A DNA stretch of 35,833 nucleotides from Clostridia bacterium (GTDB taxonomy: Bacteria; Bacillota; Clostridia; Christensenellales; UBA1242), in contig JAZSMW010000121.1 in the NCBI GenBank assembly GCA_045536095.1, positions 1-35,833 of the forward strand, in the 5' to 3' direction. Position numbers and translations under genes: made by a program. Below, one piece after another: positions 1,862-26,528 of the stretch (position 1 is its first letter; every line of letters begins with the position of its first letter). Below the pieces are notes generated by a model, which saw only the letters and a program-made list of their open reading frames with translations, did not search any database and had not been told where the DNA came from.

Positions 1862-1873
1862 TTATATTTTTTA

Positions 1874-2037
1874 TTAAAATAGCACCAAAAAATTTAAACA
1901 AGTTAAATTTTAATCATTCATAAATGAATGCTTTCTTGCTAATCGCTAGTGTTGGTGTTTTTTTAATGCGGGCGGAAATACTGTTTCAAACTTGCAAGTA
2001 AACTTGCGTCTAGAGATATTTCCTCCTACATAAAAAA
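1874..2037 (+). repeat. Terminator-adjacent structured repeat, copy A (head type 1)
   Basis: It shares the AACACCAA...TTGGTGTT head, the AATGCGGGCGG linker, the GGAAATA...TATTTCC long hairpin and the CTACATAAAAAA tail with the other copies. Its 3' end abuts the hairpin at 2036-2069. Confidence 0.85.
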
Positions 2038-2075
2038 GTTGCAATTTGTGAAAAACCCAAATGCAACTTTTTTTG
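2032..2075. terminator. Bidirectional rho-independent terminator (rsuA-like gene / upstream + strand ORF)
   Basis: The stem is AAGTTGCA (2036-2043) / TGCAACTT (2062-2069), flanked by an A-run and a T-run. Confidence 0.6.
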
Positions 2076-2104: not shown

Positions 2105-2812
2105 TTATAAATTTTTAATTAATTGTTCTACCTCTAGATTTGTTAATTCTCTAAATTCACCTCTTTGTAGAGTTGGATCTAGTTCTAATGCACCAAAATT
2201 TGTTCTTTCTAAAAACGTTATTTTATTCCCAACAGCCCCAAACATCCGTTTAATTTCATGGTACTTTCCTTCGGTTAACTGAATATAACCCCTGTTTTTT
2301 TCTTTCATATGAATTCTACACGGTTTTGTCACATAACCATCTTTTAACAAAATTCCCGCTTCAATTTTATGCTCATTGTGTTTTGTTAATTCTTCGGCAC
2401 ATTCAAAATAATAAACCTTGCTTACATGTTTTTTTGGGGCAAGTAATTTATGCGCTGATATTCCATCATTTGTTAATATAACTAAACCTAACGTGTCTTT
2501 ATCTAATCTCCCACATGGAAAAAGCCCCATTTTTTTATACTTTTGAGGTAGCAAATCTAAAACGGTTTTTTGTCTAGCATCTTCGGTAGCACTAACAACT
2601 CCGCTTGGTTTGTTTAGCATTATATAAACGTATTTATTGTAATTTATTACCTGACCGTTATAAATAACTTTTGCAGTTTGTTCGTTAATTTTACAATCAG
2701 GCTTTTTTATTATTTCACCATCTACTGTAACTCGCCCCTTTTTTATTTCTGCATTTGCTTCAGACCGTGAAAGTGTTGCTGTTTCGGTGAAAAATTTATC
2801 TAATCTAATCAT
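2105..2812 (-). CDS. rsuA: Pseudouridine synthase, RsuA/RluB family, with an N-terminal S4 domain
   Basis: It has the N-terminal S4-like segment MIRLDKFF...LSRSEA...I..G.V.V.G and the catalytic motif GRLDKDTLGLVILTNDG. The size (235 aa) fits RsuA. Confidence 0.85.
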   Translation of the reverse strand: MIRLDKFFTETATLSRSEANAEIKKGRVTVDGEIIKKPDCKINEQTAKVIYNGQVINYNKYVYIMLNKPSGVVSATEDARQKTVLDLLPQKYKKMGLFPCGRLDKDTLGLVILTNDGISAHKLLAPKKHVSKVYYFECAEELTKHNEHKIEAGILLKDGYVTKPCRIHMKEKNRGYIQLTEGKYHEIKRMFGAVGNKITFLERTNFGALELDPTLQRGEFRELTNLEVEQLIKNL

Positions 2813-4972
2813 CTAGTCCTCTTGTTGACAATCCTTTATTGTTAATTGAATTCTCTTTTTTTGAACATCTACCGAAAGTACTTTAACATTTAGTTGTTGT
2901 CCAACTGTTAGTTCTTCTGATGGATGCTTAATGTATTTATTAGATATTTGTGAAATATGAACTAAACCATCTTGATGAACACCAATATCTACAAACGCAC
3001 CAAAGTCTATTACATTACGAACTGTTCCTTTAATTATCATACCCTCTTTTAAATCTTCTAGCCCCAAAAGTTCTGCTCTAAGTACTGGTTTTGGCATATC
3101 TTCACGAATGTCTCTTCCCGGCTTAGAAAGTTCTTTAACCATATCTATAAGTGTTGGAACACCAACCCCAATTTCTGTTGCAACTTTTTCTTCGCCTTTT
3201 AGTTTTACTAAGCTAGAAAGCGTTTCTAAGTTACCCTCTTTAACATCTTGATCTGTCAAGCTAAATAATTTTAAAAGCTTTTGTGCACTTTCATAACTTT
3301 CTGGATGCACAGCGGTGTTGTCTAACACGTTTTGTCCGTCAACAATTCTTAAAAAGCCCGCACACTGTTCATATGCCTTTGGCCCAAGTTTTTTTACCTT
3401 TAAAAGCTGTTCTCTATTAGTAAAATTATTAATTTCCTTACGATACTCACATATGTTTTTTGCAATAGACGAATTAAGCCCTGAAACATAAGATAAAAGG
3501 CTAGGCGATGCTGTGTTTAAGTCTACACCAACACTATTAACGCAATCTTCTACCACGCCTGTTAATACCTCTGTTAAACGGTTTTGCGGCATGTCGTGTT
3601 GATATTGTCCAACGCCAATAGATTTTACATCTATTTTAATTAATTCTGCAAGAGGATCTTGAAGCCTACGAGCAATAGAAACGGCACTTCTTAAATTAAC
3701 ATCAAAGTCTGGAAATTCTTCGGCGCCCAATTTACTTGCCGAATAAACAGACGCTCCGGCTTCATTTACCATTGCGTAATTTAATTTACGATTTACTTGC
3801 TTAATTAATTCGCATATAAAAATTTCAGATTCTTTACTTGCTGTTCCATTACCAACAGCAACAATGTCCACATTGTGTTTTTCTACTAACGCCTTAAGTT
3901 TAATTAATGATTCTTCTGTTTTATTAAATGGTGGGGTTGGATAAACAACTGTTGTGTCTAATACTTCTCCGTGAGAATCAATTATGGCAACTTTACATCC
4001 CATTCTGTAACCAGGATCAAAACCCATAATAACATTATTTTTTAATGGTGACTGTAAAAGTAATGGCTTTAAATTTACTTCAAACATTTTAATTGCTTGC
4101 TCGCTTGCAAAATCGGTTAATTCATTTCTGCACTCATTTTCTAAACTAGGGAATAGCAACCTTTTATAACTGTCGGCAATAACCTCTTCCATAATTTCTT
4201 TTGTTGTTGAATTTGGTTTAATGTATGCATTAGATATTTCAGTTAATGCCAATTGCTCCTCTAATTGAATACTAACCTTTAAACACTCTTCATTCTCTCC
4301 CCTATTTATTGCTAAAATTCTATGACTAGGGATGCTTTTTACAGGTTCTGAGTGTTCTGCATACATTTCATACACTTCGCTGCCCTCTTTTTCTACTAAA
4401 GTGGTGCAAATTTGTGCATGATTTTTTATAACTTCTCTTAAAGTTTTTCTAAGTTCACTATCATCTGATATTCGCTCTGCAATGATATCTTTTGCCCCTG
4501 CAAGAGCCTCTTCTACAGAGTTGACTTCCTTTTCTTCGTTTACAAATGCTTGAGCAACTTGCAAAATGTCTTGAGTTTCTTCTTGCTGTTGCAAAATATC
4601 TGCAAGAGGTTCTAGCCCTTTTGCGATAGCAACACTTGCTCTTGTTTTACGTTTTGGCTTATATGGCCTATAAATATCTTCTACTTCGGTTAATGTTTTT
4701 GCTTCCTTTAACTTTTGCTCTAATTCTTCGGTCCATTTTTCTTGCTCTTTTATAGAATTTTCTACCTCGCCCTTTCTTTTTTCGAGGTTTCTTAAATAAT
4801 TTAATCTATCTGAAAATTCTCTTAAAACTTGATCATCACATGAACCATGCATTTCCTTTCTATATCTTGCAATAAATGGGATTGTGCACCCCTCATCTAA
4901 TAAAGTTATTATGTTTTGAACATACTCCGTTTTTAAACTAAATTCTTCGCTTAATGTATTTACTATTTCCAT
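2813..4972 (-). CDS. tex: Tex transcription accessory protein (YqgF-like and HhH domains, C-terminal S1 domain)
   Basis: The N-terminus carries TIPFIARYRKEMHG. The C-terminus has an S1 motif, GMIIKGTVRNVIDFGAFVDIGVHQDGLVHISQIS. The length is 719 aa. Confidence 0.92.
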   Translation of the reverse strand: MEIVNTLSEEFSLKTEYVQNIITLLDEGCTIPFIARYRKEMHGSCDDQVLREFSDRLNYLRNLEKRKGEVENSIKEQEKWTEELEQKLKEAKTLTEVEDIYRPYKPKRKTRASVAIAKGLEPLADILQQQEETQDILQVAQAFVNEEKEVNSVEEALAGAKDIIAERISDDSELRKTLREVIKNHAQICTTLVEKEGSEVYEMYAEHSEPVKSIPSHRILAINRGENEECLKVSIQLEEQLALTEISNAYIKPNSTTKEIMEEVIADSYKRLLFPSLENECRNELTDFASEQAIKMFEVNLKPLLLQSPLKNNVIMGFDPGYRMGCKVAIIDSHGEVLDTTVVYPTPPFNKTEESLIKLKALVEKHNVDIVAVGNGTASKESEIFICELIKQVNRKLNYAMVNEAGASVYSASKLGAEEFPDFDVNLRSAVSIARRLQDPLAELIKIDVKSIGVGQYQHDMPQNRLTEVLTGVVEDCVNSVGVDLNTASPSLLSYVSGLNSSIAKNICEYRKEINNFTNREQLLKVKKLGPKAYEQCAGFLRIVDGQNVLDNTAVHPESYESAQKLLKLFSLTDQDVKEGNLETLSSLVKLKGEEKVATEIGVGVPTLIDMVKELSKPGRDIREDMPKPVLRAELLGLEDLKEGMIIKGTVRNVIDFGAFVDIGVHQDGLVHISQISNKYIKHPSEELTVGQQLNVKVLSVDVQKKRIQLTIKDCQQED

Positions 4973-6418: not shown

Positions 6419-7636
6419 ATGAAAGAGCGAGTTATCTTCCATTGTGACGCAAATAGTTTTTATGCTTCTGTTGAAATTGCAAATAATAAAAACTTAACAG
6501 GAAAACCTGTTGCTGTAACTGGCAACCCAGAAAAAAGAACAGGCATTATTTTAACTAGAAGCCTTGAAGCAAAAAAATATGGTGTTGAAACCGGTGAAGC
6601 AATTTGGCAGGCAAAGCTTAAATGCCCAAACCTTGTTTGCGTACCACCAAATCACGCTCTGTATGCGGAATATTCTAAAAATCTACGCAAAATATATGAG
6701 AAATATACCGACCGTGTAGAAAGTTTTGGAATTGACGAGTGCTGGCTTGATATGACCGATAGTTTAAAGTTTTTTGGTTCTGCAAAAGAAGTTGCCGACA
6801 AAATAAGAGAAGATGTAAAAACCACTCTTAACATAACAATATCTGTTGGAGTTAGTTTTGGAAAACTTTTAGCAAAACTCGGTTCAGACATAAAAAAACC
6901 AGACGCAACAACAATTATAGACAAACACAACTTTAAACAAATTGTTTATCCATTACCCATAACCTCAATAATAGGAATTGGGAAACGCCTAAATAAGCGA
7001 TACAACAAAATAGGCGTTTTTAAACTTGGGGAAATAATAGATATTCCCGATAGCGTTTTAAAGAAAAACTTTGGAATTTTAGGACTACAACTAAAACAAA
7101 AACTTTTGGGCAACGATTATGACGAAGTAAAAAAATGCAATGATATATCGGCCCCTAAAAGCATTGGAAACGGAACTACAACAATAAAAGATGTATACAC
7201 TCGGGACGAAATAATGGGTGTTGTTACTGCTCTTTGTGAAGAAATTTCTACCAGATTAAGAGCAGAAAACTTTAATGCTGGAAGTGTTTCTGTCACTATT
7301 AAAACCGCAGATTTTCGTTATATTCATGAAACCTCACGACTTTTATTTAAAACAAACACAAATTTAGATCTCTGTAATTGTTGTATGCGTTTAATTGATT
7401 CTTTTTGGAAATATGGAACCGCAGTAAGAGCAATAAGAATTTGCACATACAACTTAAGTAGTTGCAATGAAACTCAATTAAACATGTTTAGCAATTCTCT
7501 TAAAAATTCCAACCTAAACAGTGCCCTAGATAAAATTAGAAACAAATATGGATACTATTCTATTACTCCCCTATCACTTGCAAAATCCACAGTTTTAGAT
7601 CTATCCAGAGTAGAAACAACCCCGCCCCGAACATAA
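6419..7636 (+). CDS. dinB: DNA polymerase IV (Y-family translesion polymerase)
   Basis: The N-terminus reads ERVIFHCDANSFYASVE and the ...GIDECWLDMT motif is present. An RBS (AAGGGGG) and an upstream SOS box support the call. Confidence 0.9.
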   Translation: MKERVIFHCDANSFYASVEIANNKNLTGKPVAVTGNPEKRTGIILTRSLEAKKYGVETGEAIWQAKLKCPNLVCVPPNHALYAEYSKNLRKIYEKYTDRVESFGIDECWLDMTDSLKFFGSAKEVADKIREDVKTTLNITISVGVSFGKLLAKLGSDIKKPDATTIIDKHNFKQIVYPLPITSIIGIGKRLNKRYNKIGVFKLGEIIDIPDSVLKKNFGILGLQLKQKLLGNDYDEVKKCNDISAPKSIGNGTTTIKDVYTRDEIMGVVTALCEEISTRLRAENFNAGSVSVTIKTADFRYIHETSRLLFKTNTNLDLCNCCMRLIDSFWKYGTAVRAIRICTYNLSSCNETQLNMFSNSLKNSNLNSALDKIRNKYGYYSITPLSLAKSTVLDLSRVETTPPRT

Positions 7637-7796
7637 AAAACCATCGCAATTTTAAATAAATTTAAAATTATGCATTTGTTCCACAAATACACTTTTGCTA
7701 TTCACAAAAGCGATGGCCCTTTGGTACGGGCGGAAATACTGCTTCAAACTTGCAAGTAAACTTGCGTTTAACGATATTTCCTACTACATAAAAAAA
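7633..7796 (+). repeat. Terminator-adjacent structured repeat, copy B (head type 2)
   Basis: It has the CCATCGC...GCGATGG head, the TGGTACGGGCGG linker, the GGAAATA...TATTTCC hairpin and the CTACTACATAAAAAAA tail. Its 5' ATAAAAAA overlaps the dinB stop codon (7634-7636). Confidence 0.9.
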
Positions 7797-7816
7797 CAGG
7801 AGAAACTCCTGTTTTA
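7790..7816 (-). terminator. Rho-independent terminator of the 7814-8872 gene
   Basis: The stem-loop ACAGGAG-AAA-CTCCTGT (7796-7812) starts 1 nt after the stop codon. The U-tract corresponds to the A-run at 7790-7796. Confidence 0.75.
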
Positions 7817-8872
7817 TCTACCCCTGTCTCTTTCATCAACCCTTGGAGGCAAATTATTTCTTTGCTTATTTTGATCAACCCACTCACCCAAAAACGAAGA
7901 ATAATCGTTTTCGGCCTCTAAATTATTCTTTTTTGTTCTTGTAGGTTTAGGCTTAAATTCTCTTGGAACATCCTTACTTGGGGTGGCAGGTTTAACCGCA
8001 GCACTCCCCTTAGAACCTCCCTTTTTCTTTTTTTTGTCGGCCTTTTTGTCTTTTCCTGCCTTCTTTTTTTTCTTTTTATCATCACTCTTTTTTTTCTTTT
8101 GAGCTGTAACAACCTCTTCTGGTGCCATAATTTTTACATTTTTAATAGCACTTAAATATGCCTCTTGAAGTAAAATCATTTTATCTAACACTGGGCCTGC
8201 AAAAACATCTTTATTTTTTAAAAGCATAGAATCTATCATTAATTTTAATTCACGCCAATATTTTTTATCGGCTTTGGTTAATTTTTTTAATTCTATTCTT
8301 TTTTTAAGTTCTAATAAAAATTGTTGTCCATAAGGGCCTGCAGTTTTAATTAATGCAAGCATTTTTAAAACATATGCCTTGTCTGCAGGAATAGAAGCCA
8401 TCAGCATTGCCTCATAATGCATTTTTAATTTTTTAAGGCGTTCTTGAATTTTTAAAAGGGTTGCATTGTCAATATCTACCCCCTCAGACTCGTCTTGTGC
8501 GTAAAGATGAAACGCCTTTTTAATTTCAATAAAAAAGTTTGCATCATTTTTTAAAACAACGCTATGCACATAAGTTTGTAAATCTTTATCTATAAAGCCT
8601 AAAGTGCTTTTTTCTAACACAAACAAGCCTGCTCTTTTTTGGTTGTTTTCTCCATCTTGTATATATACAACAAATTTAAGTTTTGCATCACCAACCTTGG
8701 CAGTTGCCAAAATTTTATTGTCAGAAAATGAATCTATAATTTTATTACATATAATAAGCTCTTGAATAATATCTTGATCAATAACATAGTTATCATCAGC
8801 ATCAAAAAAACCTAAAAGGCCACTGGCCTCTGCATCTAAATTTTTTAAATAATTTATATACTTTTTGTTCAT
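7814..8872 (-). CDS. Hypothetical protein with an extremely lysine-rich C-terminal tail (352 aa)
   Basis: ORF track. The first ~250 residues look helical, followed by KKKKSDDKKKKKKAGKDKKADKKKKKGGSKGS... I recognise no family. Confidence 0.6.
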   Translation of the reverse strand: MNKKYINYLKNLDAEASGLLGFFDADDNYVIDQDIIQELIICNKIIDSFSDNKILATAKVGDAKLKFVVYIQDGENNQKRAGLFVLEKSTLGFIDKDLQTYVHSVVLKNDANFFIEIKKAFHLYAQDESEGVDIDNATLLKIQERLKKLKMHYEAMLMASIPADKAYVLKMLALIKTAGPYGQQFLLELKKRIELKKLTKADKKYWRELKLMIDSMLLKNKDVFAGPVLDKMILLQEAYLSAIKNVKIMAPEEVVTAQKKKKSDDKKKKKKAGKDKKADKKKKKGGSKGSAAVKPATPSKDVPREFKPKPTRTKKNNLEAENDYSSFLGEWVDQNKQRNNLPPRVDERDRGR

Positions 8873-8880
8873 ATGGATTT

Positions 8881-8909
8881 ATTATATAATATATTGTTAC
8901 TTTTTGCAA
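8881..8909 (-). promoter_or_regulatory. Sigma-A-type promoter of the 7814-8872 gene, probably giving a leaderless mRNA
   Basis: On the minus strand the sequence reads TTGCAA (8909-8904), a 17-nt spacer, then TATAAT (8886-8881). Only 8 nt (AAATCCAT) separate the -10 from the ATG at 8872, and no SD sequence is present. Confidence 0.55.
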
Positions 8910-8952
8910 GTATTATTTAATAGGCCCCTAGAAAAATCCTTTTAAATTTTTA

Positions 8953-9008
8953 TAAAGTGTTTCAAGCTTGCAAGTAAACTTGCGTCTAGAGATATTTCCT
9001 ACTAAATA
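8953..9008 (+). repeat. Truncated repeat copy C' (tail hairpin module only)
   Basis: The sequence AGTGTTTCAAGCTTGCAAGTAAACTTGCGTCTAGAGATATTTCCTACTAAAT matches the 3' module of copies A and C. It lacks the GCGGGCGGAAATA 5' arm and is fused directly to copy C. Confidence 0.8.
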
Positions 9009-9170
9009 AAATAACACCAAAAAATTTAAGCAAGTTAAATTTTAACCATTCATAAATGAATGCTTTCTTTGTTAAGCGCTAGTGTTGGTGTTTTTTTAAT
9101 GCGGGCGGAAATACTGTTTCAAGCTTGCAAGTAAACTTGCGTTTGACGATATTTCCTTCTACATAAAAAA
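9005..9170 (+). repeat. Terminator-adjacent structured repeat, copy C (head type 1)
   Basis: It is near-identical to copy A over head, linker and tail. Its 3' AAAAAA (9165-9170) is the U-tract of the rpmA terminator. Confidence 0.9.
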
Positions 9171-9196
9171 GCCAAAGACAATTAATTGTCTTTGGC
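9165..9196 (-). terminator. Rho-independent terminator of rpmA
   Basis: A perfect 13-bp palindrome, GCCAAAGACAATT/AATTGTCTTTGGC (9171-9196), is followed on the minus strand by the T-run (A-run 9165-9170). Confidence 0.85.
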
Positions 9197-9211
9197 ATGT
9201 TTTTTACTTTA

Positions 9212-9490
9212 TTATTCTGCAGCTATTACACTAACATACTTTTTATCGCCACTGTTGTGAAATTTAACAGTGCCATCTACTTTTGCAAAAATTGTGTAAT
9301 CTTTGCCAAGCCCGCAATTTTCACCCGCATAAACTTTTGTTCCGCGTTGTCTAATAATAATTGATCCTGCAAGAACTGGTTGACCGTCTGCTGCTTTAAC
9401 GCCTAAACGTTTAGAGTTACTATCTCTACCATTTTTAGTGCTACCGCCACCTTTTTTATGGGCAAAAAGTTGAATATTAATAAATTTCAT
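9212..9490 (-). CDS. rpmA: 50S ribosomal protein L27 with a Prp-cleavable N-terminal extension
   Basis: The sequence reads [32 protein letters not shown].... I trimmed the ORF to the ATG at 9490, which has a GGAGG RBS 6 nt upstream. The longer ORF-track start would overlap prp. Confidence 0.92.
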
Positions 9491-9827
9491 TTTTGACCTC
9501 CAAATTAATGTATTTTTTATAGTTTTTATTACCACATAATAAGCATTTTACTGACTCTTCAAAAGTCATAAACAAAATTTGTGCTTTTTGCATTTGCTCT
9601 TTTGTTAAATCATTTGACAAAAAGCATGACAAATATGCATTATTGTTTTCTATTTTTATTATGGGCTTTAGGCTTAAAACATTTTCGAGCCCCACACAAA
9701 CCATTTGTGATAAAGACGAAATTGCTGCACACACTATGTCGCTTCCTTCACCTGCATAGCCAGAATGTCCAGAAACAACAAAGCCTAAAATTGTGCCATT
9801 GTTTTTTGTTATTTGAATTTTTGTCAT
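9477..9827 (-). CDS. prp: Ribosomal-processing cysteine protease Prp (YsxB family)
   Basis: It sits between rplU and rpmA. The motif [18 protein letters not shown] contains the catalytic His/Cys. It overlaps the rpmA start by 14 nt. Confidence 0.88.
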
Positions 9828-9876
9828 AATTTTTTACCTATCAAACATTATATAATGCTTGCTTTTAAAGGTTTAA

Positions 9877-10182
9877 TTACTTAATTTCAACAATTTTGAT
9901 TGCAGTGTATGGTTGTCTGTGACCTTGTTTTCTGCGATAGTTCTTTTTTGCTTTGTATTTGTAAACAACAATTTTATCGCCTTTTCCATGTTCAACAACT
10001 TCTGCAACACAAGTAACTCCATTAACAACTGGGTTACCAGCAACAATTGTTCCGTTGTCAGAAACAAGTAAAACATCGAAATTAACTTTTGAACCAACTT
10101 CAAGTTCTAGCTTTTCTACTTTAACAACGTCACCAACTGCAACTTTGTATTGTTTTCCACCAGTTTGAATAATTGCAAACAT
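9877..10182 (-). CDS. rplU: 50S ribosomal protein L21
   Basis: The sequence reads [16 protein letters not shown]...VEKL......[20 protein letters not shown]. Confidence 0.95.
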
Positions 10183-10262
10183 TTGCGCCTCCTAAAAATA
10201 AATCTCACTACGCACAAGGCGGGTTAAACCACTTTTTAAGCCCTGCATATGTGGCATACGGG
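10183..10262 (-). promoter_or_regulatory. Candidate L21 ribosomal-protein leader (5' UTR of rplU-prp-rpmA)
   Basis: This ~80-nt GC-enriched UTR lies between a consensus promoter and the rplU RBS, where Firmicutes carry the L21 leader. I could not verify the structure by hand. Confidence 0.5.
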
Positions 10263-10266
10263 TAAG

Positions 10267-10296
10267 ATTATACAACAAGTATACTTGTTTTGTCAA
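10267..10296 (-). promoter_or_regulatory. Consensus sigma-A promoter of the rplU operon
   Basis: On the minus strand the sequence reads TTGACA (10296-10291), an 18-nt spacer, then TATAAT (10272-10267). Confidence 0.8.
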
Positions 10297-10334
10297 CAAT
10301 TAAATTAATTAATTTTGCCTTTTGTTTAAATTAG

Positions 10335-10498
10335 AATAAAATAACACCAAAAAATTTAAATAAGTTAAATTTTAACATTCACAAATGAATGCTTCTTTGC
10401 TAATCGCTAGTGTTGGTGTCTTTTGGTACGGGCGGATATCGCATTTAATCTGAGAATAAATTCTCTTGTAAATGCGATATTTCCTACTACATAAAAAA
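10335..10498 (+). repeat. Terminator-adjacent structured repeat, copy D (head type 1, divergent tail)
   Basis: It has the AACACCAA...TTGGTGT head and the TGGTACGGGCGG linker. The tail is GGATATCGCATTTA...GAGAATAAATTCTC...TAAATGCGATATTTCC, followed by CTACTACATAAAAAA. Confidence 0.9.
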
Positions 10499-10515
10499 TG
10501 CACTAATATAGTGCA
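10492..10515 (-). terminator. Rho-independent terminator of the DUF4132-like gene
   Basis: The stem is TGCACTA-ATA-TAGTGCA (10499-10515). The A-run at 10493-10498 is the U-tract on the minus strand. Confidence 0.7.
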
Positions 10516-10527
10516 TTTAATTTTTTA

Positions 10528-12681
10528 TTATAATTTTTTTGAGGCCGAAACAGCATTTAATACATAATCGTAATATCTTGGTTCTACACCGCCAATTGCA
10601 ATTGCATTTGCTTTGTTAATTATGTATGCACTACCATTTTTTAAGCATTGGTTTAGTTTATAAAACCTAATGTTCCCTAAACTTGATGTAGAAGTGTAAT
10701 AAGTAACTGGAGTTTCAAATGCCACCTCGGCAAGTAAATTAAGCTCTGGACAAGCATGCACAAGCTCGGTTGCATCTTCGCCGTCATGTGAAATATTTTT
10801 TATAAAACCAAACTCTGCCATTTCAGAAATAAACTTAATTGCATTAATTAAAATACCATGCATACTAGAAACTTTTGAAAGCGTTTTTTCATTTTCTTTT
10901 ATTGGAAAAATCGAATTTGTAAATTGTTTAAACGTTGGGTTAGAAAAATATGATTTTGCACTTTCAAATCTGTCATCTAAATCTAACGAATGCGCAATTT
11001 TAATTTTTAAGTCATTTGCGTCTTGTGCTGTTCCTGCTATGTATTTAATTTGTTTTTCTTCTAACACAAAAAGAGAAAGCAACCTATCTTGTTTATATTC
11101 TCCAAAAACCAATTTTTGCGCTAAAATATTAAATACTTTTTTTTCAATAAAAATTTCTTCAAATTGTTGTTTAGAATAACTTTTATTTGCTATAAAGCCA
11201 GCATATAACCTCTGTTTTTGAGAAGCAATAGCCTCTTCTGTAATTTCATCGCTTGCAAGCATATCTAAAACATCTGAATTTGTTTTTTGCAAATTTTCAG
11301 AATATATAGAAACAAAATAATCTTTATCTTCTAAAAACTTTGGATTTTGTTCTTCTATTAATTTAGAAATTGTTGTAATAACTCCCGCACGTTTTGCGTA
11401 AATTAAACATTCCATAAAATATTTTGCCTCTTTGTGGCGGTTAAGTTTATATAATCCTGCAATAAATTCATATATCTGTTCCAAAAGTTGTTCACTTGCA
11501 AGAAGAGAAATTAGCCTTATTGCCCACTTCGCTTCTTTAATATCTTTCATGTGGCTAACAACAAAATATAATTTTTCGGCAAAATTGTTTAAGTCTATTT
11601 CATTAAACAATGTTTTAACGTCACTTAAACCACATAAATTTAACAGGTCTTTTTCTTCTTTAAAAATATTAATTAAATACGTTTTTACAATGTTGTTTGC
11701 CGGTGTTCCATCAACAAAATTTAAATTAACTTTTTCAAAAGCAATACCAAGCGTTCTTTCTTGAATGGTTTCAACTTTTTTTTGTGCCATTGTTTCAAAA
11801 TGCTTAGGCGAAACACCTAAATTTTGTTTACTAGAAATGCCCAGTTTAAGTTTAATAAAGTTTTTTATTTCTTCATTTTGTTCTTCTTCATACAAATCTT
11901 CTAGCCTAGCAGTAACTTCTGGATTTTCTATGCTAGCCAATATTTTTACATAGTTAAATTTTTTGTTGCCAGCCGTTTCTAAATTCTTGTCAAAAAATGC
12001 CATTGTGTCGGTATAATAGTGTTTGAGCATTTTTGCAATTAATTTATCATCTATTGCTCCAATTTCGGAATCAAAAATTTGGCTAATTGCCTTTTGCGTA
12101 TTAAACTCAAGCCCCAGCTCTAAATATGTAAGATTATGCATTGAGTTGGTTGCCACAAAGCTTGCAATTTCCTCCATGTTCTCTCTATATAAATTTTGCA
12201 AATATTCAAGCGCAGGAGCAAGCCAAACCGAAATGGACGATTTGTCGTTATCTTCTACAATAGCAAACAAAAATGGCAATACATCACCAGTTGTTATGTC
12301 TGTGCTTTTAACAACTTCTATAAAACGGTCAAAATAACGCTCTTTGTGAGAATATTCTTTATTTTTGCTAATATATGTGCTTGGCCCCACGTGCGCCACA
12401 AATAACTTTTCTAAGAACAAAATTATTGCCCAATAATTTTTAGTATGCAAAAACATTTTAGTTAAATTGCAAAGCGCAGGTAAATATTCATTTAACTGAA
12501 AAATAAGTTCAGCTAATTTGCTAACCGCATTTTCGCAATTTGCACTTACCTGTGCATTTTTTAAAAGATCTCTAATGTTAGAAAAACTCATAGCATCTAG
12601 CATTGGGATGTTAGATACATCTATGTTAAAAATTTCATTAATTTTATCACTAATTTGTTTATAATTTCTTAATATTTCCAT
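10528..12681 (-). CDS. Large helical protein, DUF4132-like (717 aa)
   Basis: ORF track. The C-terminal segment KLVFGEYKQDR...IKIAHSLDLDD...FKQFTNSIFPI resembles the DUF4132 signature as I remember it. No search was run. Confidence 0.5.
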   Translation of the reverse strand: MEILRNYKQISDKINEIFNIDVSNIPMLDAMSFSNIRDLLKNAQVSANCENAVSKLAELIFQLNEYLPALCNLTKMFLHTKNYWAIILFLEKLFVAHVGPSTYISKNKEYSHKERYFDRFIEVVKSTDITTGDVLPFLFAIVEDNDKSSISVWLAPALEYLQNLYRENMEEIASFVATNSMHNLTYLELGLEFNTQKAISQIFDSEIGAIDDKLIAKMLKHYYTDTMAFFDKNLETAGNKKFNYVKILASIENPEVTARLEDLYEEEQNEEIKNFIKLKLGISSKQNLGVSPKHFETMAQKKVETIQERTLGIAFEKVNLNFVDGTPANNIVKTYLINIFKEEKDLLNLCGLSDVKTLFNEIDLNNFAEKLYFVVSHMKDIKEAKWAIRLISLLASEQLLEQIYEFIAGLYKLNRHKEAKYFMECLIYAKRAGVITTISKLIEEQNPKFLEDKDYFVSIYSENLQKTNSDVLDMLASDEITEEAIASQKQRLYAGFIANKSYSKQQFEEIFIEKKVFNILAQKLVFGEYKQDRLLSLFVLEEKQIKYIAGTAQDANDLKIKIAHSLDLDDRFESAKSYFSNPTFKQFTNSIFPIKENEKTLSKVSSMHGILINAIKFISEMAEFGFIKNISHDGEDATELVHACPELNLLAEVAFETPVTYYTSTSSLGNIRFYKLNQCLKNGSAYIINKANAIAIGGVEPRYYDYVLNAVSASKKL

Positions 12682-12797
12682 ATTTTCTCCAATTAAATTT
12701 TATCACATCTAAAACTATTTGTAAAATTTTTTATGTAATTTCTTTTTATTGTTAAAAATAATTATTTGCTTATTTTATACAAATTTTAATTTAACAC

Positions 12798-12826
12798 TTT
12801 ACAAATGTTTTTTTTGCTGTTATAAT
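12798..12826 (+). promoter_or_regulatory. Sigma-A promoter of the ileS leader
   Basis: The sequence reads TTTACA (12798-12803), a 17-nt spacer, then TATAAT (12821-12826). Confidence 0.7.
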
Positions 12827-12834
12827 CTTTTTGT

Positions 12835-13098
12835 AAGTTTTAAAAACTTAATATAAAATGCGCTACAACAAAAGACACGGCTTATGTAACCTTGTTTTTA
12901 GAGAGTTGCCGTTTGGTGCAAGGCAATAAACAAATACACAAGTTATCCCTTTTGGAGCAGGTTTACCGAACAAGCTTTTTGTTTTATTAGGTTAACACGG
13001 GTCTTCCCGTTATAGAAGAAGTGGGTGCTAGCCCACAGCATAAACAAGTGGTATAACTCTTAGCAAGAGTCTTGTTTTTGCTAGGAGTTTTTTTATTT
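12835..13098 (+). promoter_or_regulatory. T-box riboswitch leader (Ile) with an intrinsic terminator
   Basis: It has an AG box AGAGAG (12900-12905) and a distal loop GGTGCAA (12915-12921). The candidate specifier is AUC at 12945-12947, but AUA at 12926 or 12934 is possible. A degenerate T-box core AAACAAGTGGTATAACTC lies at 13042-13059. The terminator is AACTCTTAGCAA (13055-13066) / TTGCTAGGAGTT (13078-13089) plus a T7 run, directly upstream of ileS. Confidence 0.8.
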
Positions 13099-13112
13099 AA
13101 AAGGAGATTATT

Positions 13113-16100
13113 ATGTACAAAAAAGTTGGCGAAATGAACCTTGCTCAAACCGAAGAACAAGTTTTAAAGTTTTGGCAAGAAAACAACATTAAAAATCAAT
13201 GTTTAAGCCACAACAAAGGCAAAAAGATGTATTCTTTTTATGAGGGGCCTCCAACAGCAAATGGACAACCTCATGCTGGTCACGTTTTAACAAGAACGCT
13301 TAAAGACCTATTTAACCGTTTTCATTTAATGAAAGGCTACGAAGTTCCAAGAAAGGGCGGATGGGACACTCACGGGTTACCTGTTGAAATTTCTGTAGAA
13401 AAAGAAATAGGAATTTCGGGCAAACAACAAATTGAAGCTTATGGCGTAGAAAAATTTATTACCGAATGCAAAAAAGACGTTTGGAAATATGTTGACCTTT
13501 GGAAAACATTTTCAGACCGTGTTGGATACTTTGTTAACATGGATGACGACTGCTATGTTACTTATAAAGACGACTATATTGAGAGCGAATGGTGGAGTTT
13601 AAAAGAGTTAAACAATAAGGGTCTTTTATATAAAGGTTACAAGGTTTTACCATGTTGCCCAAGCTGTGGAACAGCACTTTCCTCTCACGAAGTTGCTCAA
13701 GGCTATAAAGAACGAAACGATTTAACAATTGTTGCTAAATTTAAAGCGGCAAATCATATAAACACTTACTTTTTAGCATGGACAACTACCCCATGGACAC
13801 TTCCTTCTAACGTTGCTCTTTGCGTTAACCCTGTTGAAACCTATGTTAAAATTGAATGTTTTGAAACTGGCGAAAACTATATTTTAGCCGAAGCATTAGT
13901 TTCTTCGTTTTTTAAAGATGAAGAATTTAAAATTGTAGAAAAATACACAGGTAAACAATTAGAATATCAAAAATATGAACCACTATTTAACTTTGCATCA
14001 AGCGATGTAACAGCAAAAGCATTTTTTGTAACATGCGATGCATATGTTACACTAACAGACGGAACTGGCATTGTTCACATTGCGCCAGCCTATGGTGCAG
14101 ACGATGCCAATGTTGGAATGAAATATAACTTGCCTTTTGTTGCAATGGCTGGTCAAGACGGATTGTTTACATCCGCATGTGAAAAATATGCTGGCAAAAA
14201 TGTGTTTGATGTTAACGAACAAGTTGCAGAAGACTTAAGAACTGATGGCAAAGTGTTTAAAAGTGCAAGACACAAACACGAATATCCACACTGCTGGAGA
14301 TGTAAATCACCTCTTATGTATTTTGCAAGAGACGGCTGGTTTGTTAAAACAACAGCAATTAAAGATGAATTAATAAAAAATAACCAAGAGGTTAATTGGC
14401 ACCCAGATTCTATAAAAGACGGACGTATGGGCAACTGGCTAGAAAATGTTATAGACTGGAACATTTCTAGAGATCGCTATTGGGGAACTCCTCTTCCTGT
14501 TTGGACTTGTGAATGTGGTCACTACCATGTTGTTGGATCTAAAGCCGAACTTAAGGAACTTGGAAATTTAAGTGAAGATATAGAACTACACAAACCATAT
14601 GTAGATGATGTAACACTAACCTGCCCACACTGTGGAAAACCAATGAAGCGTGAGCCATACGTTATAGACTGCTGGTACGATAGTGGTTCTATGCCTTTTG
14701 CTCAATTCCACTATCCATTTGAAAACAAAGAAGAATTTGAACGTAGATTCCCTGCCGACTTTATTTCGGAAGGAGTTGATCAATGCCGTGGTTGGTTTTA
14801 TACTCAACTTGTGCTAGGCACTGCTCTATTTGGCAAAGCTCCATACAAGCATGTTATTGTTAACGGGCTTGTTGTTGACGATAATGGGGTTAAACTTTCT
14901 AAGAGCCTTGGAAATTACCGTCCACCAATGGAAATAATAAACGCTGTTGGCGCAGATGCTGTTAGGTGGTCCTTCTACACAACAACCCAACCGTGGAATA
15001 ACCAACCAATGTCTGTTAAAAGCGCATCAGAATCTGTTAAAAATTATTTTGGTACACTTTGGAACACTTATGCATTTTTTGTTTTGTATGCAGAAATTGA
15101 CCAGTTTGACCCAAGCAAATATAACTTAAGCGATTGTAATCTTTCTATTATGGACAAATGGGTTTTATCTGAATTTAATACCCTTGTTGCCGAAGTTACA
15201 GAACTTGTAGAAACTTACCACTGCACAGAAGCAGCCCGCAAGGTTCAAGTTTTTGTTGAAAATCTTTCAAACTGGTATGTAAGAAGATGCCGCAAACGCT
15301 ATTGGGCTGGAGGTATGACTGAAGATAAAATAAGTGCTTATGTTACTCTTTGGGAAGTTCTTGTTGGGCTATGCAAACTAACTGCACCATTTACTCCGTT
15401 TGTAACCGAAAGCATGTATCAAAACCTAGTTACTCCATTTTTTGAAAACGCTCCAAAAAGCGTTCACCTTTGTGACTATCCAGAAGTAAATACATCGTTT
15501 ATAAATCAAAAATTAAGCACAGATATGGATTTATGTTACAAGTTTACTGAGCTTGGCAGAAGTGCAAGAAACCTAAGCAATATAAAAATCCGTCAACCAC
15601 TTGCAAAGCTATATATTACAGATGCAAATGGCAAATTTGATTTGGATGCTAATTTAATTACCCAAATAAAAGAAGAATTAAACGTTAAAGAAATAATCGA
15701 AAATGAAGACTTGTCAAAATTTGTTAAATATTCTATAAAACCTCAACTAAAAACTTTAGGGCCAAAATATGGTTCACTTCTTGGTGAAATAAGAAACTTT
15801 TTTGCAAATTGCGACGCAAACCAAGTGGTTGCTTGTGTTAGAAGCGGAAATACGTTTAAAACAACCTTAAACGGCACTTTGGTAGAGTTTGCCGAAAGTG
15901 ACATTTTAATTTCGGTTGAACAAACATCTGCTTACACTTCTGCAACCGAAGGGTCTCTTGCCGTTGTTCTAGACACAACCCTAACCCAAGAATTAATAGA
16001 GGAAGGCACTGTTCGTGAATTTGTTTCTAAAGTTCAAAACTTAAGAAAAACAAGTGGATATGAGGTAACAGACCGCATTAATATAAGCGTGGATGGAAAC

Positions 16101-16286: not shown

Positions 16287-16317
16287 AAAAGCCAAAACTC
16301 TGGCTTTTGTTTTTTCT
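16287..16317 (+). terminator. Rho-independent terminator of ileS
   Basis: The stem is AAAAGCCA (16287-16294) / TGGCTTTT (16301-16308), followed by GTTTTTTCTT. Confidence 0.75.
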
Positions 16318-16474
16318 TATGTAGTGGGAAATATCGTTTAAACGCAAATTTATTTGTGGGTTTAAAACGAGATTTCCGCTCGTACCAAAAATCACTGCTT
16401 TTGTGATAACAAAAGTGTTGAATTTATTCAAGTGGATAATTTTAAATCTATTTAAAGTTGCGGTGTTATTTTAT
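16311..16474 (-). repeat. Terminator-adjacent structured repeat, copy E (hybrid head, divergent tail), the only minus-strand copy
   Basis: Its reverse complement reads ATAAAATAACACCGC...CTTTTGTTATCACAAAAGCAGTGATTTTTGGTACGAGCGGAAATCTCG...CAAATAAATTTG...CGATATTTCCCACTACATAAGAAAAAA. The tail end abuts the ileS terminator. Confidence 0.85.
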
Positions 16475-16545: not shown

Positions 16546-18432
16546 CTATTTTGTATATTTAACATAACCAGCTTTGTCTTGAGTTGCGCTCTCGCTAAAC
16601 CCTTTACTTACCAACTGTGTGCTACTTAAACCATTTTTTAAGTATACGGTTGTGGTTGCAGAATTTGCTAACAAATAACCCATGTATGTGCTATTATTTG
16701 CAATTGTGCTACTATCTATTGTTACAGTTTGCAATCTTGAACAACCATCAAATGCATCGGAACCAATTCTTGTTGCAGATGCCCCAATTGTCAATGAAGT
16801 AATAGCAGAACATCCCCTAAATGCAAAGTCACCAATAACATCTGTTAATCCGGTTAAATTTACTTCACCACTTATGCCAGAGCACCCATTAAATGCCGCA
16901 AAACCTACTGAGTTTAGCTTTGACATGTTTACTGAGCCGGTTATTCCTGTGCACCCATTAAATGCATATGGCCCAACTGATGTTACATTTGATAAATTTA
17001 AACCTGTAATTTTTTTATAGTTTGTAAATTGTGCTCCCACACTTGTTACATCGCTAGGAACTGTTAATGTGCCATCAACCAATACATTGTTTATATATAA
17101 ATTTCGTGCGCTTTCAAAGATGTAAGGATTACTTGTTATTTCTATGCCAAACCACTCTTTTAAAGTTCCTGCATAATAAACATTTGATAAATTACAATCT
17201 TTAAATGCAGCAACACCTATGGATGTTACATTATCAAGCATTAAATCACCAAATATTTTTACACAGCCACTAAATGCATAAATACCAATGTTAGTTGCAT
17301 TTGATAAGTTTAAACTGCTTACAACTACATTTTTGCAATCTGCAAAGGCATACTGACCAATGCTTGTTACATTTTCTAAATCTAAAGAAATTAAAGTTTG
17401 ACATTCATTAAACGCATATTCACCAATTGTTGCTCCGCTAGCAAAGCTTAAGCTAGATATTAATTGATTGCAACCACTAAATGCGCGCTGACCAACAGTA
17501 GCTAAATTTTGCGTGTTTATAACATCAAATATTTGACTACCATTAAAAGCATATTCGCCAACCGACGTTGCACTAGTTAAATTTGCAAAACCTTTAAATG
17601 ATGTGCAACCATTAAAGGCATAATCCCCTATTGTTGTTACATTATTTAAATTAATTCCGTTAAGCGAAGTTTTACCTTTAAATGCATTGGAACTAATTGT
17701 TGTTGTGCTAGGCGTTAATGCAACATGTTTTATATTGCTAGAAAATGCATAAGCTGGCACCTGTGAAACAGCCTCTGGCAATTTAACTAAAGTATCTGAA
17801 ATTGTTGTGCCTGCAGTTTGCGATGAACCACTAGGAAGTGTTGTTAAACTAGAAATTTCTTCACTTGGTGCATACTCTTCCATATTTAAGTAGTAAGAAA
17901 AACTGCAATTTGTTGCAACATTTAAGTTTGTTCCTGGCCTTATACTAAAAAATACATCCATGCTAATTTCGTCTTGATCGGAAGAATCATCTGCTTTTTT
18001 TAAATATGAATATGATGTTAAGTTAACATTAAGTATGTTCCTTAATGTGTCGGAGGTTTTAATGTCTGACCCTACAGCTAACGTGTTTGTTGTTTTTTCT
18101 TCTTCACCCGAATAAAAATAAACACCCAAATTTTTGTTACTTAAATTTTTAATATGTATTGTTAGTTTTGTGCAAACACCAGACATTTTGCTGTTATGAG
18201 ATATTGCCAATGTTGGAATAGTTAAATCCACACCATATATGCTTTGCGTTGGCTCTAATATTTGTTCACCATTTATATAACCACTTATTTCTATATTACT
18301 ATTTGGTGGGGTTATATGTACCGTGCCACCCAAAGTTGAATTTGATGGTACAGAAGCATATACTCCAATACCAACTATACCCACACACAATATTAATAAT
18401 AAAACACTCAAAAATATTTTTTGTTTTTTCAT
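16546..18432 (-). CDS. Secreted/surface BspA-type leucine-rich repeat (LRR_5-like) protein (628 aa)
   Basis: The N-terminus is signal/anchor-like (MKKQKIFLSVLLLILCVGIVGIGVYA). A ~200 aa non-repeat region follows, then many ~23 aa units of the form NVTSIG.YAF.GC..L. Confidence 0.8.
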   Translation of the reverse strand: MKKQKIFLSVLLLILCVGIVGIGVYASVPSNSTLGGTVHITPPNSNIEISGYINGEQILEPTQSIYGVDLTIPTLAISHNSKMSGVCTKLTIHIKNLSNKNLGVYFYSGEEEKTTNTLAVGSDIKTSDTLRNILNVNLTSYSYLKKADDSSDQDEISMDVFFSIRPGTNLNVATNCSFSYYLNMEEYAPSEEISSLTTLPSGSSQTAGTTISDTLVKLPEAVSQVPAYAFSSNIKHVALTPSTTTISSNAFKGKTSLNGINLNNVTTIGDYAFNGCTSFKGFANLTSATSVGEYAFNGSQIFDVINTQNLATVGQRAFSGCNQLISSLSFASGATIGEYAFNECQTLISLDLENVTSIGQYAFADCKNVVVSSLNLSNATNIGIYAFSGCVKIFGDLMLDNVTSIGVAAFKDCNLSNVYYAGTLKEWFGIEITSNPYIFESARNLYINNVLVDGTLTVPSDVTSVGAQFTNYKKITGLNLSNVTSVGPYAFNGCTGITGSVNMSKLNSVGFAAFNGCSGISGEVNLTGLTDVIGDFAFRGCSAITSLTIGASATRIGSDAFDGCSRLQTVTIDSSTIANNSTYMGYLLANSATTTVYLKNGLSSTQLVSKGFSESATQDKAGYVKYTK

Positions 18433-18638: not shown

Positions 18639-18802
18639 ATAAAAAACCATCGCAATTTTAAATAAATTTAAAATTATGTATCTGTTTCACAAATACTCTT
18701 TTGCTATCCACAAAAGCGATGGCCCTTTGGTACGGGCGGAAATACTGCTAAAATCTTGCGAATAAATTCGCCGATTTACGATATTTCCTACTACATAAAA
18801 AA
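18639..18802 (+). repeat. Terminator-adjacent structured repeat, copy F (head type 2, divergent tail)
   Basis: The head is near-identical to copy B. The tail is GGAAATACTGCTAAAATCTTGCGAATAAATTCGCCGATTTACGATATTTCC, followed by CTACTACATAAAAAA. Confidence 0.9.
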
Positions 18803-18822
18803 CGGGCTCATAATTGAACCCG
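18797..18822 (-). terminator. Probable terminator of the holin-like gene / phage-like operon
   Basis: The stem is CGGGCTCA (18803-18810) / TGAACCCG (15-22) with one mismatch. The A-run at 18797-18802 is the U-tract on the minus strand. Confidence 0.5.
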
Positions 18823-18829
18823 ATTATAA

Positions 18830-19051
18830 TTATTCTTTTTTATCATTAGTGTTATCTTTACTTTGATCTTTGCCTTTTGGCTTCTGAACAATACCAAAAA
18901 CCACAAGCAAGCCACATATTGAAAGAATTATTTGTTCAACGCCTTTAACATTTATGCTTATGCCAAGGGTATCGTTTATTGCTATAAACAAAAGCCCAAC
19001 AGCTCCAGCAAGCGTTGTCCAAAACTTATAAGACTTAATTAGGTTTTTCAT
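18830..19051 (-). CDS. Small membrane protein, holin-like (73 aa)
   Basis: It has two hydrophobic segments and a charged Lys/Asp-rich C-terminus. It is the last gene of the phage-like operon. Confidence 0.5.
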   Translation of the reverse strand: MKNLIKSYKFWTTLAGAVGLLFIAINDTLGISINVKGVEQIILSICGLLVVFGIVQKPKGKDQSKDNTNDKKE

Positions 19052-19277
19052 CTTTTTTCCTTTTTGTTTGGTCGTTTTTTAACAAACATTTTTTAATTTT
19101 TGATACATCTTGTTTTATTTCGTCTACAGTATTTAAACTGCTCGATAAACAATCGATAATGTTTTGGTATTTTGTCTCTCTTTTTTTTGTATCCTTTAAA
19201 ACATAAACTAGTAGAGCCACAAACAAACATGCAAATATCCCATTGCTTAATGCAATGTTAAACACATCCGACCACAT
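19035..19277 (-). CDS. BhlA/UviB-family holin-like protein (80 aa)
   Basis: It has a single N-terminal TM segment, NGIFACLFVALLVYVLKDTKKRETKY, which resembles the BhlA signature (..FA.LF..LL.Y..K.sk.RE.K) as I remember it. A coiled C-terminus follows. Confidence 0.6.
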   Translation of the reverse strand: MWSDVFNIALSNGIFACLFVALLVYVLKDTKKRETKYQNIIDCLSSSLNTVDEIKQDVSKIKKCLLKNDQTKRKKDEKPN

Positions 19278-19280
19278 AAA

Positions 19281-20186: not shown

Positions 20187-20261
20187 TGTCTTCTCCTTTT
20201 AGGAATTTTTGTTTGTTGTACCTTTTAAAAATTAGTTTTAATAAATTATAATCTATAATCA

Positions 20262-22331: not shown

Positions 22332-22641
22332 TATTTTTCTCCATTTGCTCTAATAAATTTTTTTGCTCTTTTTTTAAAAGGAGAGCATTTTCGTTTTCAA
22401 TTTCTTGTAAATATTTTTCTCGATTTTGAATTTCGCTTTTTTGAATATGTATCAACATTCGCTCATCTATTTGGTTAAACGGGAATGTTAAAGAATACTC
22501 ACAGGGTTTTAAACTGTTTTCTTTTATTTTTAACACATACTTTTTAGTTTTTATGTTATAAAAAACCCTATAGTGCTTATTCCATGCTTTAATTCTTTTT
22601 ATTATTCCTAGAGCATCGCTCTTTATTTCAAATTGTTCCAT
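22309..22641 (-). CDS. Phage-like hypothetical protein (110 aa)
   Basis: ORF track. It lies between the capsid and adaptor-like genes and has a coiled C-terminus. Confidence 0.45.
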   Translation of the reverse strand: MEQFEIKSDALGIIKRIKAWNKHYRVFYNIKTKKYVLKIKENSLKPCEYSLTFPFNQIDERMLIHIQKSEIQNREKYLQEIENENALLLKKEQKNLLEQMEKNIESKRNN

Positions 22642-23964: not shown

Positions 23965-23968
23965 TTTT

Positions 23969-24640: not shown

Positions 24641-24643
24641 ATT

Positions 24644-26524: not shown

Positions 26525-26528
26525 TTAT

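Follow-up and report, generated by a model that had tools for sequence, protein, structure and literature searches.

A bcr1-like interspersed repeat of about 155 bp adjoining transcription terminators in an uncultured Clostridia bacterium

To our knowledge, the insertion mechanism and the mobilizing enzyme of bcr1-type repeats, which lack inverted repeats and have been known for 25 years, are still unexplained. In the Bacillus cereus group, bcr1 is a non-coding repeat of about 155 bp that is flanked by TTTAT (PMC3184786, PMC6542083). Its stem-loop ('cruciform-like') is kept by compensatory changes, its position and copy number vary between strains, and partial copies are frequent (PMC3184786, PMC6542083, PMC6199540, PMC3446304). 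Moreover, bcr1 is often transcribed within untranslated regions (UTRs) (PMC3184786, PMC6199540, PMC3446304). Here, a 35,833-bp NCBI contig from a metagenome-assembled genome (MAG) of an uncultured Clostridia bacterium with a genomic G+C content of 32% was analyzed; this whole stretch is called the window. It contains six full copies (A to F) and one 5′ fragment of a repeat of 153–157 nt. The copies directly adjoin the T-tracts of terminators, and the repeat is probably a lineage-specific, bcr1-like family of about 155 bp, i.e., non-coding, non-autonomous, interspersed, without terminal inverted repeats and mobilized in trans.

Elements of the IS200/IS605 type insert 3′ of a target of 4–5 nt in one orientation, and class C group II introns enter directly behind intrinsic terminator hairpins, oriented like the terminated gene and via single-stranded DNA at the replication fork. 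RAYT cuts single-stranded REP DNA at a GTAG motif next to a palindrome; REPs with this tag have been reported from Proteobacteria, Cyanobacteria, Chloroflexi and the PVC group, and not from Firmicutes (PMC3733652). SPRITE, a small AT-rich repeat, is strongly enriched near gene 3′ ends and between convergent genes, and its fold ends in a stem and a T-rich tract; its mobilizing enzyme is not known, and empty sites are lacking (PMC3049150). In the IS110 family, the ssr9 module of ISPpu9 has the size of a small RNA (sRNA) gene and carries no enzyme; it is copied in trans, always in the same orientation, into extragenic palindromes (PMC12288879).

Position of the copies at terminators

Copies were located by repeat search, alignment and a covariance model built from the fold common to their minimum free energy (MFE) structures, and their coordinates run from GTAG to the terminal TTTTAT. 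The six full copies lie at terminator T-tracts, with the same orientation relative to the terminated gene in 6/6 cases. Thus, the central claim of a preliminary description, which had been made from the sequence alone and had named a hairpin at each of the six loci, was borne out, and each of these hairpins is present. Read in gene direction, each copy is preceded by a hairpin and then by TTTTTTAT (A, C, D, F), TTTTTTTAT (B) or TTTTTTCTTAT (E). The element starts directly after the T-run and AT with GTAG(G/T/A)(A/G)GGAAATAT and ends in GGTG(T/C)TATTTTA(T/A) or GATGGTTTTTTAT, in agreement with the GGTG and GATGG types of 3′ end described before. Since the target is asymmetric, the common orientation follows from it automatically.

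The abutment of terminators by the copies in the window exceeds chance. Outside element bodies, 46 intergenic sites with at least four T followed by AT were counted, nine of them after a terminator-like hairpin, and the occupied sites that fit this pattern were all among these nine (5/5; hypergeometric P = 9e-5). When only sites with at least six T were considered, seven of 18 followed a hairpin and five were occupied (P = 0.0025). The first 19 kb of the window contain about seven terminators, of which six are occupied by the element. Further along the window, several terminators remain unoccupied, one of them with TTTTTTAT (28798–28824). Upstream of ileS, a 430-nt leader (12682–13112) also contains a strong terminator (13055–13089) that is followed by TTTTTTTAT and is unoccupied by the element; neither a T-box nor any other Rfam family was found at gathering score anywhere in the window.

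A seventh locus was present on another contig of the same species (L134, 3530–3693), after ssb and with the layout seen in the window: ssb is followed by the hairpin GGAGAGAAAAAAATCGTTTTTTCTCT and by TTTTTTAT/GTAGTAGG (the slash marks the insertion point), and the copy ends in GGCGTTATTTTAT. The arrangement hairpin-T6–7(N)AT/GTAG was therefore observed in seven independent loci of one species and in a variant of locus F. All copies are preceded by ...T(T/C)TAT, or by TAAT in the conspecific contig L132. Both junctions carry TTTAT or TTTTAT in copies B, C, D, F and G, and the match is imperfect in A (TTTTAAT) and in E (CTTAT and TTTAT). A string of 4–10 nt is common to both element ends. The preliminary description had reported such a string, with a 10-nt match in copy B and coordinates for its two sites. 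This match (ACATAAAAAA) is real and one site lies at 7631–7640, but the second is at 7786–7795 instead of 7787–7796 (off by one), and only 4–6 nt are shared in C, D, E and A. As the 3′ T-run is subfamily-specific, most of the shared terminal string belongs to the element.

The individual loci differ in their genes and hairpins. Copy A (1873–2029, minus strand; 165 bits with the covariance model) combines a type a hairpin 1 with a type 1 3′ module and lies between convergent genes, downstream of an rsuA-like gene (2105–2812, minus strand). The terminator hairpin of this gene (2038–2067, minus strand; −8.5 kcal/mol) and a T-tract with AT (2030–2037), which reads ATAAAAAA on the plus strand, adjoin the copy (left junction CAAC-TTTTTTAT/GTAGGAGG). 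Copy B (7633–7787, minus strand; 157.6 bits; hairpin 1 type a, 3′ module type 2) adjoins a T7AT tract (7788–7796) and a bidirectional terminator hairpin (7797–7811, minus strand) that is common to a dinB-like gene on the plus strand and an open reading frame (ORF) on the minus strand (7814–8872). Its junctions are CCTG-TTTTTTTAT/GTAGTAGG on the left and GATGGTTTTTTAT/GTTCGG on the right. The stop codon of the dinB-like gene (6419–7636) is located at 7634–7636, inside the terminal ATAAAAAA of copy B, so that its transcripts must cross the whole element in antisense before they reach the shared terminator.

Copy C (9006–9162, minus strand; 170.7 bits) is found downstream of rpmA, next to a T6AT tract (9163–9170) and the rpmA terminator hairpin (9171–9196, minus strand), with the left junction TGGC-TTTTTTAT/GTAGAAGG. 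To its 3′ end the 5′ fragment (8958–9005, minus strand) is joined head-to-tail, giving the right junction GGTGTTATTTTAT/TTAGTAGG; this fragment comprises about the first 48 nt of the element, i.e., the hairpin-1 half. Copy D (10336–10490, minus strand; 147.8 bits), whose type d hairpin 1 shows compensatory changes, lies downstream of a DUF4132 gene (terminator hairpin 10499–10515, minus strand) and upstream of rplU; its junctions are TGCA-TTTTTTAT/GTAGTAGG and GGTGTTATTTTAT/TCTAAT. Copy E (16321–16474, plus strand; 131.1 bits) is inverted relative to the other copies and is located downstream of ileS, which is itself on the plus strand, after the ileS terminator hairpin (16287–16308, plus strand) and TTTTTTCTTAT (junctions TTTG-TTTTTTCTTAT/GTAGTGGG and GGTGTTATTTTAT/CTTACA). 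Copy F (18639–18794, minus strand; 156.4 bits; hairpin 1 type f, 3′ module type 2) lies at the end of a prophage, downstream of the gene of a holin-like 73-aa membrane protein (18830–19051, minus strand) with its terminator hairpin (18803–18822, minus strand). Its junctions are CCCG-TTTTTTAT/GTAGTAGG and GATGGTTTTTTAT/TTGTGC.

Absence from related species, strain variation and fold

Syntenic contigs of three related species were recovered via relatives of IleS: L124 (87% identical), L130 (80%) and L125–128 (79%). Exact-protein look-ups matched L27, L21, S16 and the cluster member P0121 and gave no match for a 352-aa ORF, pyruvate kinase and IleS. In L124 and L130, the gene order (amidohydrolase, dinB, lysine-rich ORF, rpmA-prp-rplU, DUF4132, ileS) is mostly retained, while the ileS locus is the sole part that L125–128 have in common with the window. 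Neither blastn nor the covariance model detected a copy of the element at the syntenic loci of these contigs. Their gene ends carry compact terminators composed of a hairpin and a T-run, for example ...CAACTCAGTC-TTTTTAT/GCTC after the lysine-rich ORF and ...GGGGTG-TTTTTAT/TGCAC after ileS in L130, and empty targets should look like these plain terminators. If copy B and one terminal ATAAAAAA are taken out of the sequence, dinB and the convergent ORF again share a bidirectional terminator of 30 nt, as arranged in L130. Thus, the comparison of orthologous regions that had been proposed in the preliminary description yielded empty loci with intact terminators in three species, which indicates that the copies are lineage-specific insertions. 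Weak covariance-model matches at L125 15711–15811 and L130 9676–9837 were discarded as coding DNA or antisense of the ileS leader. L124 carries another short interspersed repeat of 82 nt (3405–3486 and 9342–9423, 80% identical), one copy of which sits in the spacer between dinB and the lysine-rich ORF.

The element family is narrow and locally dense. A specific gapped pattern retrieved a single real copy from the JGI metagenome collection, a divergent one (L123, 833–1002) between comF-like and yabP genes of a spore-former. No copy was detected in viral contigs, phage records, PLSDB plasmids or about 750 kb of unrelated genomes, and none of the 94 repeat-family files of the 2008 stem-loop compendium contains the core strings of the element. 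The pattern TATGTAGNNGGAAATAT proved too unspecific: the 119 genome-contig stretches that matched it were chance matches according to blastn and to the covariance model, which was applied to 100 of them.

Variation within the species was followed in the contigs L001, L002, L132 and L133, which are 97–99% identical to the window, and in L134; together with the 35.8-kb window, these add about 25 kb to give about 60 kb of conspecific sequence. At locus C, one full copy and the fragment are present in the window and two full copies and the fragment in L001/L002, with tandem junctions that read exactly ...TTATTTTAT/GTAG.... At locus D, a conspecific contig carries the first hairpin module (P1) of the F type (100% identical over 77 nt), and at locus F, L132 carries that of the D type (96% identical). 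Hairpin 1 was thus swapped between D and F (window 10418–10498 and 18726–18802; L001 937–1013; L132 10923–11004) when the window strain is compared with the strain or strains of samples ERZ27317464 and ERZ28593407, while 3′ modules and flanks were unmoved. This swap points to an exchange at the conserved linker TTTCCGCCCGTACCAAA. Also at locus F, the 97–99% identity between the window and L132 ends at the boundary of T-tract and hairpin, i.e., between 18802 and 18803 in the window and between 11004 and 11005 in L132. Beyond this point the window continues with the prophage-end gene and L132 with a gene for a 180-aa protein and PPDK, both of which are not in the window, so that copy F has a different terminator partner in the two contigs. 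The breakpoint reflects either recombination between element copies or a MAG misjoin at the repeat. The strain differences fit recombination among copies; they demonstrate turnover and do not prove recent transposition.

When 11 copies were folded independently by MFE, one architecture emerged. Six unpaired bases, GTAGNN, are followed by the long hairpin P1 of about 53 nt, whose base GGAAATAT/ATATTTCC is conserved and whose middle and tip are variable. The conserved, G+C-rich linker TTTCCGCCCGTACCAAA leads to a four-way junction with the closing stem P2 around hairpins P3 to P5, and the element ends in TT(A/T)TTTTAT. P1 therefore starts 6 nt from the 5′ end, and 8–9 nt separate the P2 stem from the 3′ end; GTAG is invariant in 14/14 copies. 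When 13 copies were re-aligned to the covariance model, compensatory changes were observed at 17 pairs, and 86% of cells were paired, compared with 37–51% for slid partners; none of 500 shuffles reached the observed values, with the alignment being fitted to the model, so that these pairing figures lean towards structure. In the divergent L123 copy, every helix is retained with a different sequence, and the structure is therefore under selection. On the gene-direction strand, B, E and F fold better by 11–13 kcal/mol, and the model-fitted alignment contains 38 G-U and 18 A-C pairs; the antisense strand also folds (z = −3.6). A helix 'P0' proposed by RNAalifold, which pairs the upstream U-tract and AUG with the A-rich linker, was rejected, as its 5′ side is invariant and the linker variants show no covariation. 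The 3′ end of the element, composed of a stem, a T-run and AT, resembles a terminator, and an inserted element probably acts as a second terminator or as a structure in the 3′-UTR.

No protein or known RNA could be assigned to the element. An ORF on the antisense strand reads MNAFLLIASVGVF... in A and D and gives a peptide unrelated to it in B and F; as it is interrupted by a stop in C and shifted in frame in D, it was rejected as a coding sequence. Rfam gave no match to the element in the whole window at gathering score or in 7600–10550 at E ≤ 10; the best sub-threshold match over the copies, Qrr, reached 26.5 bits compared with a gathering score of 50 and was driven by the rpmA terminator. 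Neither a tRNA nor a tmRNA was found for the element. A promoter scan detected no conserved site within the copies or immediately before them; the preceding DNA is another terminator at every locus. Terminal inverted repeats are absent (5′ end GTAGNNGGAAATAT, 3′ end GGTGTTATTTTAT), and the inverted pairs found in the repeat search of the window were whole copies only. Candidates for a mobilizing enzyme, which the preliminary description had recommended looking for, did not emerge: the window, whose genes comprise housekeeping genes, genes for BspA-type leucine-rich-repeat proteins and a prophage remnant, contains no transposase, reverse transcriptase or recombinase domain, and no Y1 HUH transposase domain was found in it or in the further 25 kb of conspecific sequence.

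Comparison with known elements and mode of insertion

According to the preliminary description, no element of about 160 nt was known to adjoin terminators. This view had to be revised, since bcr1 shows the same habit. In the published B. anthracis bcr1 sequences (n = 31; PMC2267715, supplementary file 3), the ...GCGGGATAAA end is followed immediately by an A-run, then by a G+C-rich hairpin and then by a T-run in at least eight of about 21 copies that keep that end (ban:2, 6, 7, 13, 14, 17, 18 and 29). On the other strand this reads hairpin-TTTTTAT/CCCGC..., which is the layout of the Clostridia element. The two repeats are further alike in their size of about 155 bp, TTTAT-type ends, lack of a transposase, variable distribution and partial copies. 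They differ in fold, which is one long G+C-rich hairpin in bcr1 and a hairpin plus a four-way junction here, and in strictness, since many bcr1 copies lie away from terminators or without a hairpin, whereas all seven loci of the Clostridia species are at terminators. In addition, bcr1 is reported as restricted to the B. cereus group, whereas the present host is an uncultured Clostridia MAG. Homology was not detected: an nhmmer profile of 13 element copies gave a best E-value of 0.94 against 28 transcribed B. anthracis bcr1 sequences, a bcr1 profile gave 3.7 against the window, and blastn matches of at most 30 nt were attributable to chance. Thus, the habit is not new, and judged by its sequence the element is a new family, not a member of bcr1, of a known and mechanistically unexplained kind.

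Other systems resemble the element in part. Like GTAG REPs, it carries GTAG by a palindrome, lies mainly downstream of genes, lacks inverted repeats and appears to belong to a single-strand, structure-specific biology; REPs, however, are 20–40 bp long, usually G+C-rich and often arranged as inverted pairs, while the element has 155 nt and two unlike end structures. SPRITE measures about 105 bp, has AAAA/TTTT termini and is itself terminator-like; it is not reported to lie exactly against the T-tract of a pre-existing terminator. Class C group II introns are ribozymes of at least 600 nt, usually with a reverse transcriptase ORF, whereas the 155-nt element has no intron domains and cannot reverse-splice. 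In contrast to ssr9, which has a sequence-defined REP target, conserved A′/B′ boxes and a known enzyme, the targets of the element share only a T-run and AT. Judged by the features of palindrome-associated transposable elements and RAYT substrates, the element lacks inverted repeats, has subterminal hairpins, inserts in one orientation 3′ of a short target and carries the GTAG tag; the similar left and right hairpins expected for a single TnpA were not observed, nor were the terminal inverted repeats of classical miniature inverted-repeat transposable elements.

These features suggest how insertion may proceed. A trans-encoded enzyme would integrate the folded single-stranded element 3′ of a T-rich ...TTAT site, which may become single-stranded where a terminator hairpin is extruded beside it, probably on the template of the lagging strand. 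The favored candidate is a Y1 HUH transposase of the RAYT or IS200/IS605 type, which could perform a peel-and-paste-like insertion without inverted repeats. It is favored because the invariant GTAG beside a hairpin is the motif that RAYT recognizes and cuts in REPs, because the element combines subterminal hairpins at both ends and the absence of inverted repeats with insertion in one orientation 3′ of a short target, and because the gene-direction strand is the inferred lagging-strand template in 5/6 copies. The last point is based on GC skew, by which the minus strand is the leading-strand sequence, and is confounded with gene orientation. The 3′ end of the element (stem, T-run and AT) would recreate the target, which would explain the tandem arrays.

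Several observations weigh against trans-mobilization by such an enzyme. The ends of IS200/IS605 elements normally carry similar hairpins, and P1 (GGAAATAT...ATATTTCC) and P2 (CACCAA...TTGGTG or CCATCGC...GCGATGG) have no common sequence. The orientation of copy E is opposite to the lagging-strand rule, no fold-strand preference was seen in A, C, D and the L123 copy, and no mobilizing gene, a Y1 HUH transposase included, was seen in the roughly 60 kb of species sequence. The L123 copy, from another metagenome, is preceded by ...AATCTAT without a hairpin in front. Together with the many bcr1 copies that lack a hairpin, it also qualifies the proposal of the preliminary description that the hairpin itself is recognized, whereas its reading of the copies as non-coding, non-autonomous insertions with a fixed orientation at the edge of a T-tract was supported. 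Selection alone could enrich insertions downstream of terminators. All six loci A to F are occupied in the conspecific contigs as well, so that no presence/absence polymorphism is available at base resolution, and the one-copy difference at locus C could result from unequal crossing-over. The intergenic regions of the related species have diverged too far for alignment, so that loss and gain are not formally separable; moreover, joins at repeats may be unreliable in a metagenome-assembled contig such as the window.

Two alternatives assign the element a role as RNA. It may be a structured RNA module, i.e., an accessory terminator, a 3′-UTR stabilizer or a multi-copy sRNA, that is selected for its function and spread by recombination. 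The covarying secondary structure and the terminator-like stem and U-run at the 3′ end are in line with this, read-through transcription is likely just after gene ends, and bcr1 and SPRITE are transcribed or have been proposed as terminators (PMC3446304, PMC3049150). Nevertheless, this explanation is unlikely: upstream of the copies, where each locus has a different terminator, no conserved promoter exists, the flanking genes are functionally unrelated, the element is missing at the same genes in sister species, and exactly repeated TnAT/GTAG junctions and head-to-tail arrays are signatures of insertion. An RNA role acquired after insertion would be compatible with trans-mobilization rather than opposed to it. 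An antisense-oriented sRNA gene ending at bidirectional terminators, the alternative offered in the preliminary description, is hardly tenable. Several of the abutting hairpins are indeed flanked by an A-run and, opposite it, by a T-run, and the antisense strand folds. It folds worse in three copies, however, and the promoter scan revealed no conserved antisense site within the copies. On the side where an antisense transcript would end, the hairpin at F lacks a T-run and L123 lacks a terminator; moreover, the loci are empty in sister species.

The remaining alternatives concern the enzyme. Mobilization by an IS110/IS1111-type DEDD recombinase via a circle, like ssr9 of ISPpu9, with AT or TTAT as the core, appears quite improbable. 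IS110 elements lack inverted repeats and insert in a specific orientation into palindromic REP-like targets, the ISPpu9 transposase makes circles of the sRNA module alone (PMC12288879), and a short identical string is present at both ends of the element. A bridge or seek RNA, however, reads both sides of the core, whereas the right flanks are unrelated (GTTCGG, TCTAAT, CTTACA, TTGTGC, TTTGTT) and the left targets share a T-run only, with hairpin sequences that all differ; no DEDD transposase was found in the sequence examined. There is little to commend a SINE-like retro-element, in which a read-through RNA ending at its own U-tract would be copied by, e.g., the reverse transcriptase of a class C group II intron, although such introns choose the same site and orientation, the 3′ end UUUUAU of the RNA could anneal to an ATAAAA target strand, and in B, E and F the gene-direction strand gives a much better fold. 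Ribozyme domains are missing, neither Intron_gpII nor group-II-D1D4 matched the window at gathering score or 7600–10550 at E ≤ 10, and no reverse transcriptase is encoded in the window. The sole truncated copy keeps its 5′ end and has no 3′ end, whereas abortive reverse transcription would leave the reverse pattern, and the 3′ T-run is inherited by the subfamily and not copied from each target.

Neighboring features and significance

A prophage remnant or phage-like island of about 10 kb (18830–28700, approximate positions) contains no element copies. It encodes a BhlA holin (19035–19277), the 73-aa membrane protein next to copy F, a DUF7934 protein and a P22-like portal protein (24644–26524). 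A probable L21 leader, seen as a conserved, structured-looking stretch that includes a perfect TTGACA-18-TATAAT promoter, lies upstream of rplU (window 10190–10290; L124 5900–5990); Rfam gave no match there even at E ≤ 10. BspA-type leucine-rich-repeat genes are located at 16546–18432, 28835–29596 and 30891–33335 and include one tandem paralogous pair with segments that are 70–89% identical. The BspA-type homologue beside ileS varies in length, with 628 aa in the window, 1855 aa in L132 and 1089 aa in L124. In L134, about 4 kb (10711–14632) with ORFs for 1213 aa and 86 aa lie between a KH-domain gene and the pyruvate kinase gene and are not present in the window (34894–35242).

Since the copies add a second stem and U-tract, swap modules and mark a synteny breakpoint, they can alter 3′-UTRs and drive rearrangements, and for the same reasons they can confuse metagenome assembly and the prediction of terminators or sRNAs. 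A second, sequence-unrelated family with the size, the TTTAT-type junction and the terminator abutment of bcr1 suggests a shared mechanism rather than an oddity of Bacillus. It also makes the bcr1-type mechanism more tractable, with the invariant GTAG boundary, the conserved linker and the terminator-mimicking 3′ end as handles for searches. It is conceivable, though doubtful, that bcr1 and the Clostridia family are products of one widespread, uncharacterized Firmicute system that would read intrinsic terminators as structure, namely as a hairpin, a T-tract and AT on single-stranded DNA, and would paste any folded cargo of about 155 nt with a terminator mimic at its end. If true, this would be a structure-guided, terminator-seeking mode of transposition for elements that have neither inverted repeats nor a gene of their own.

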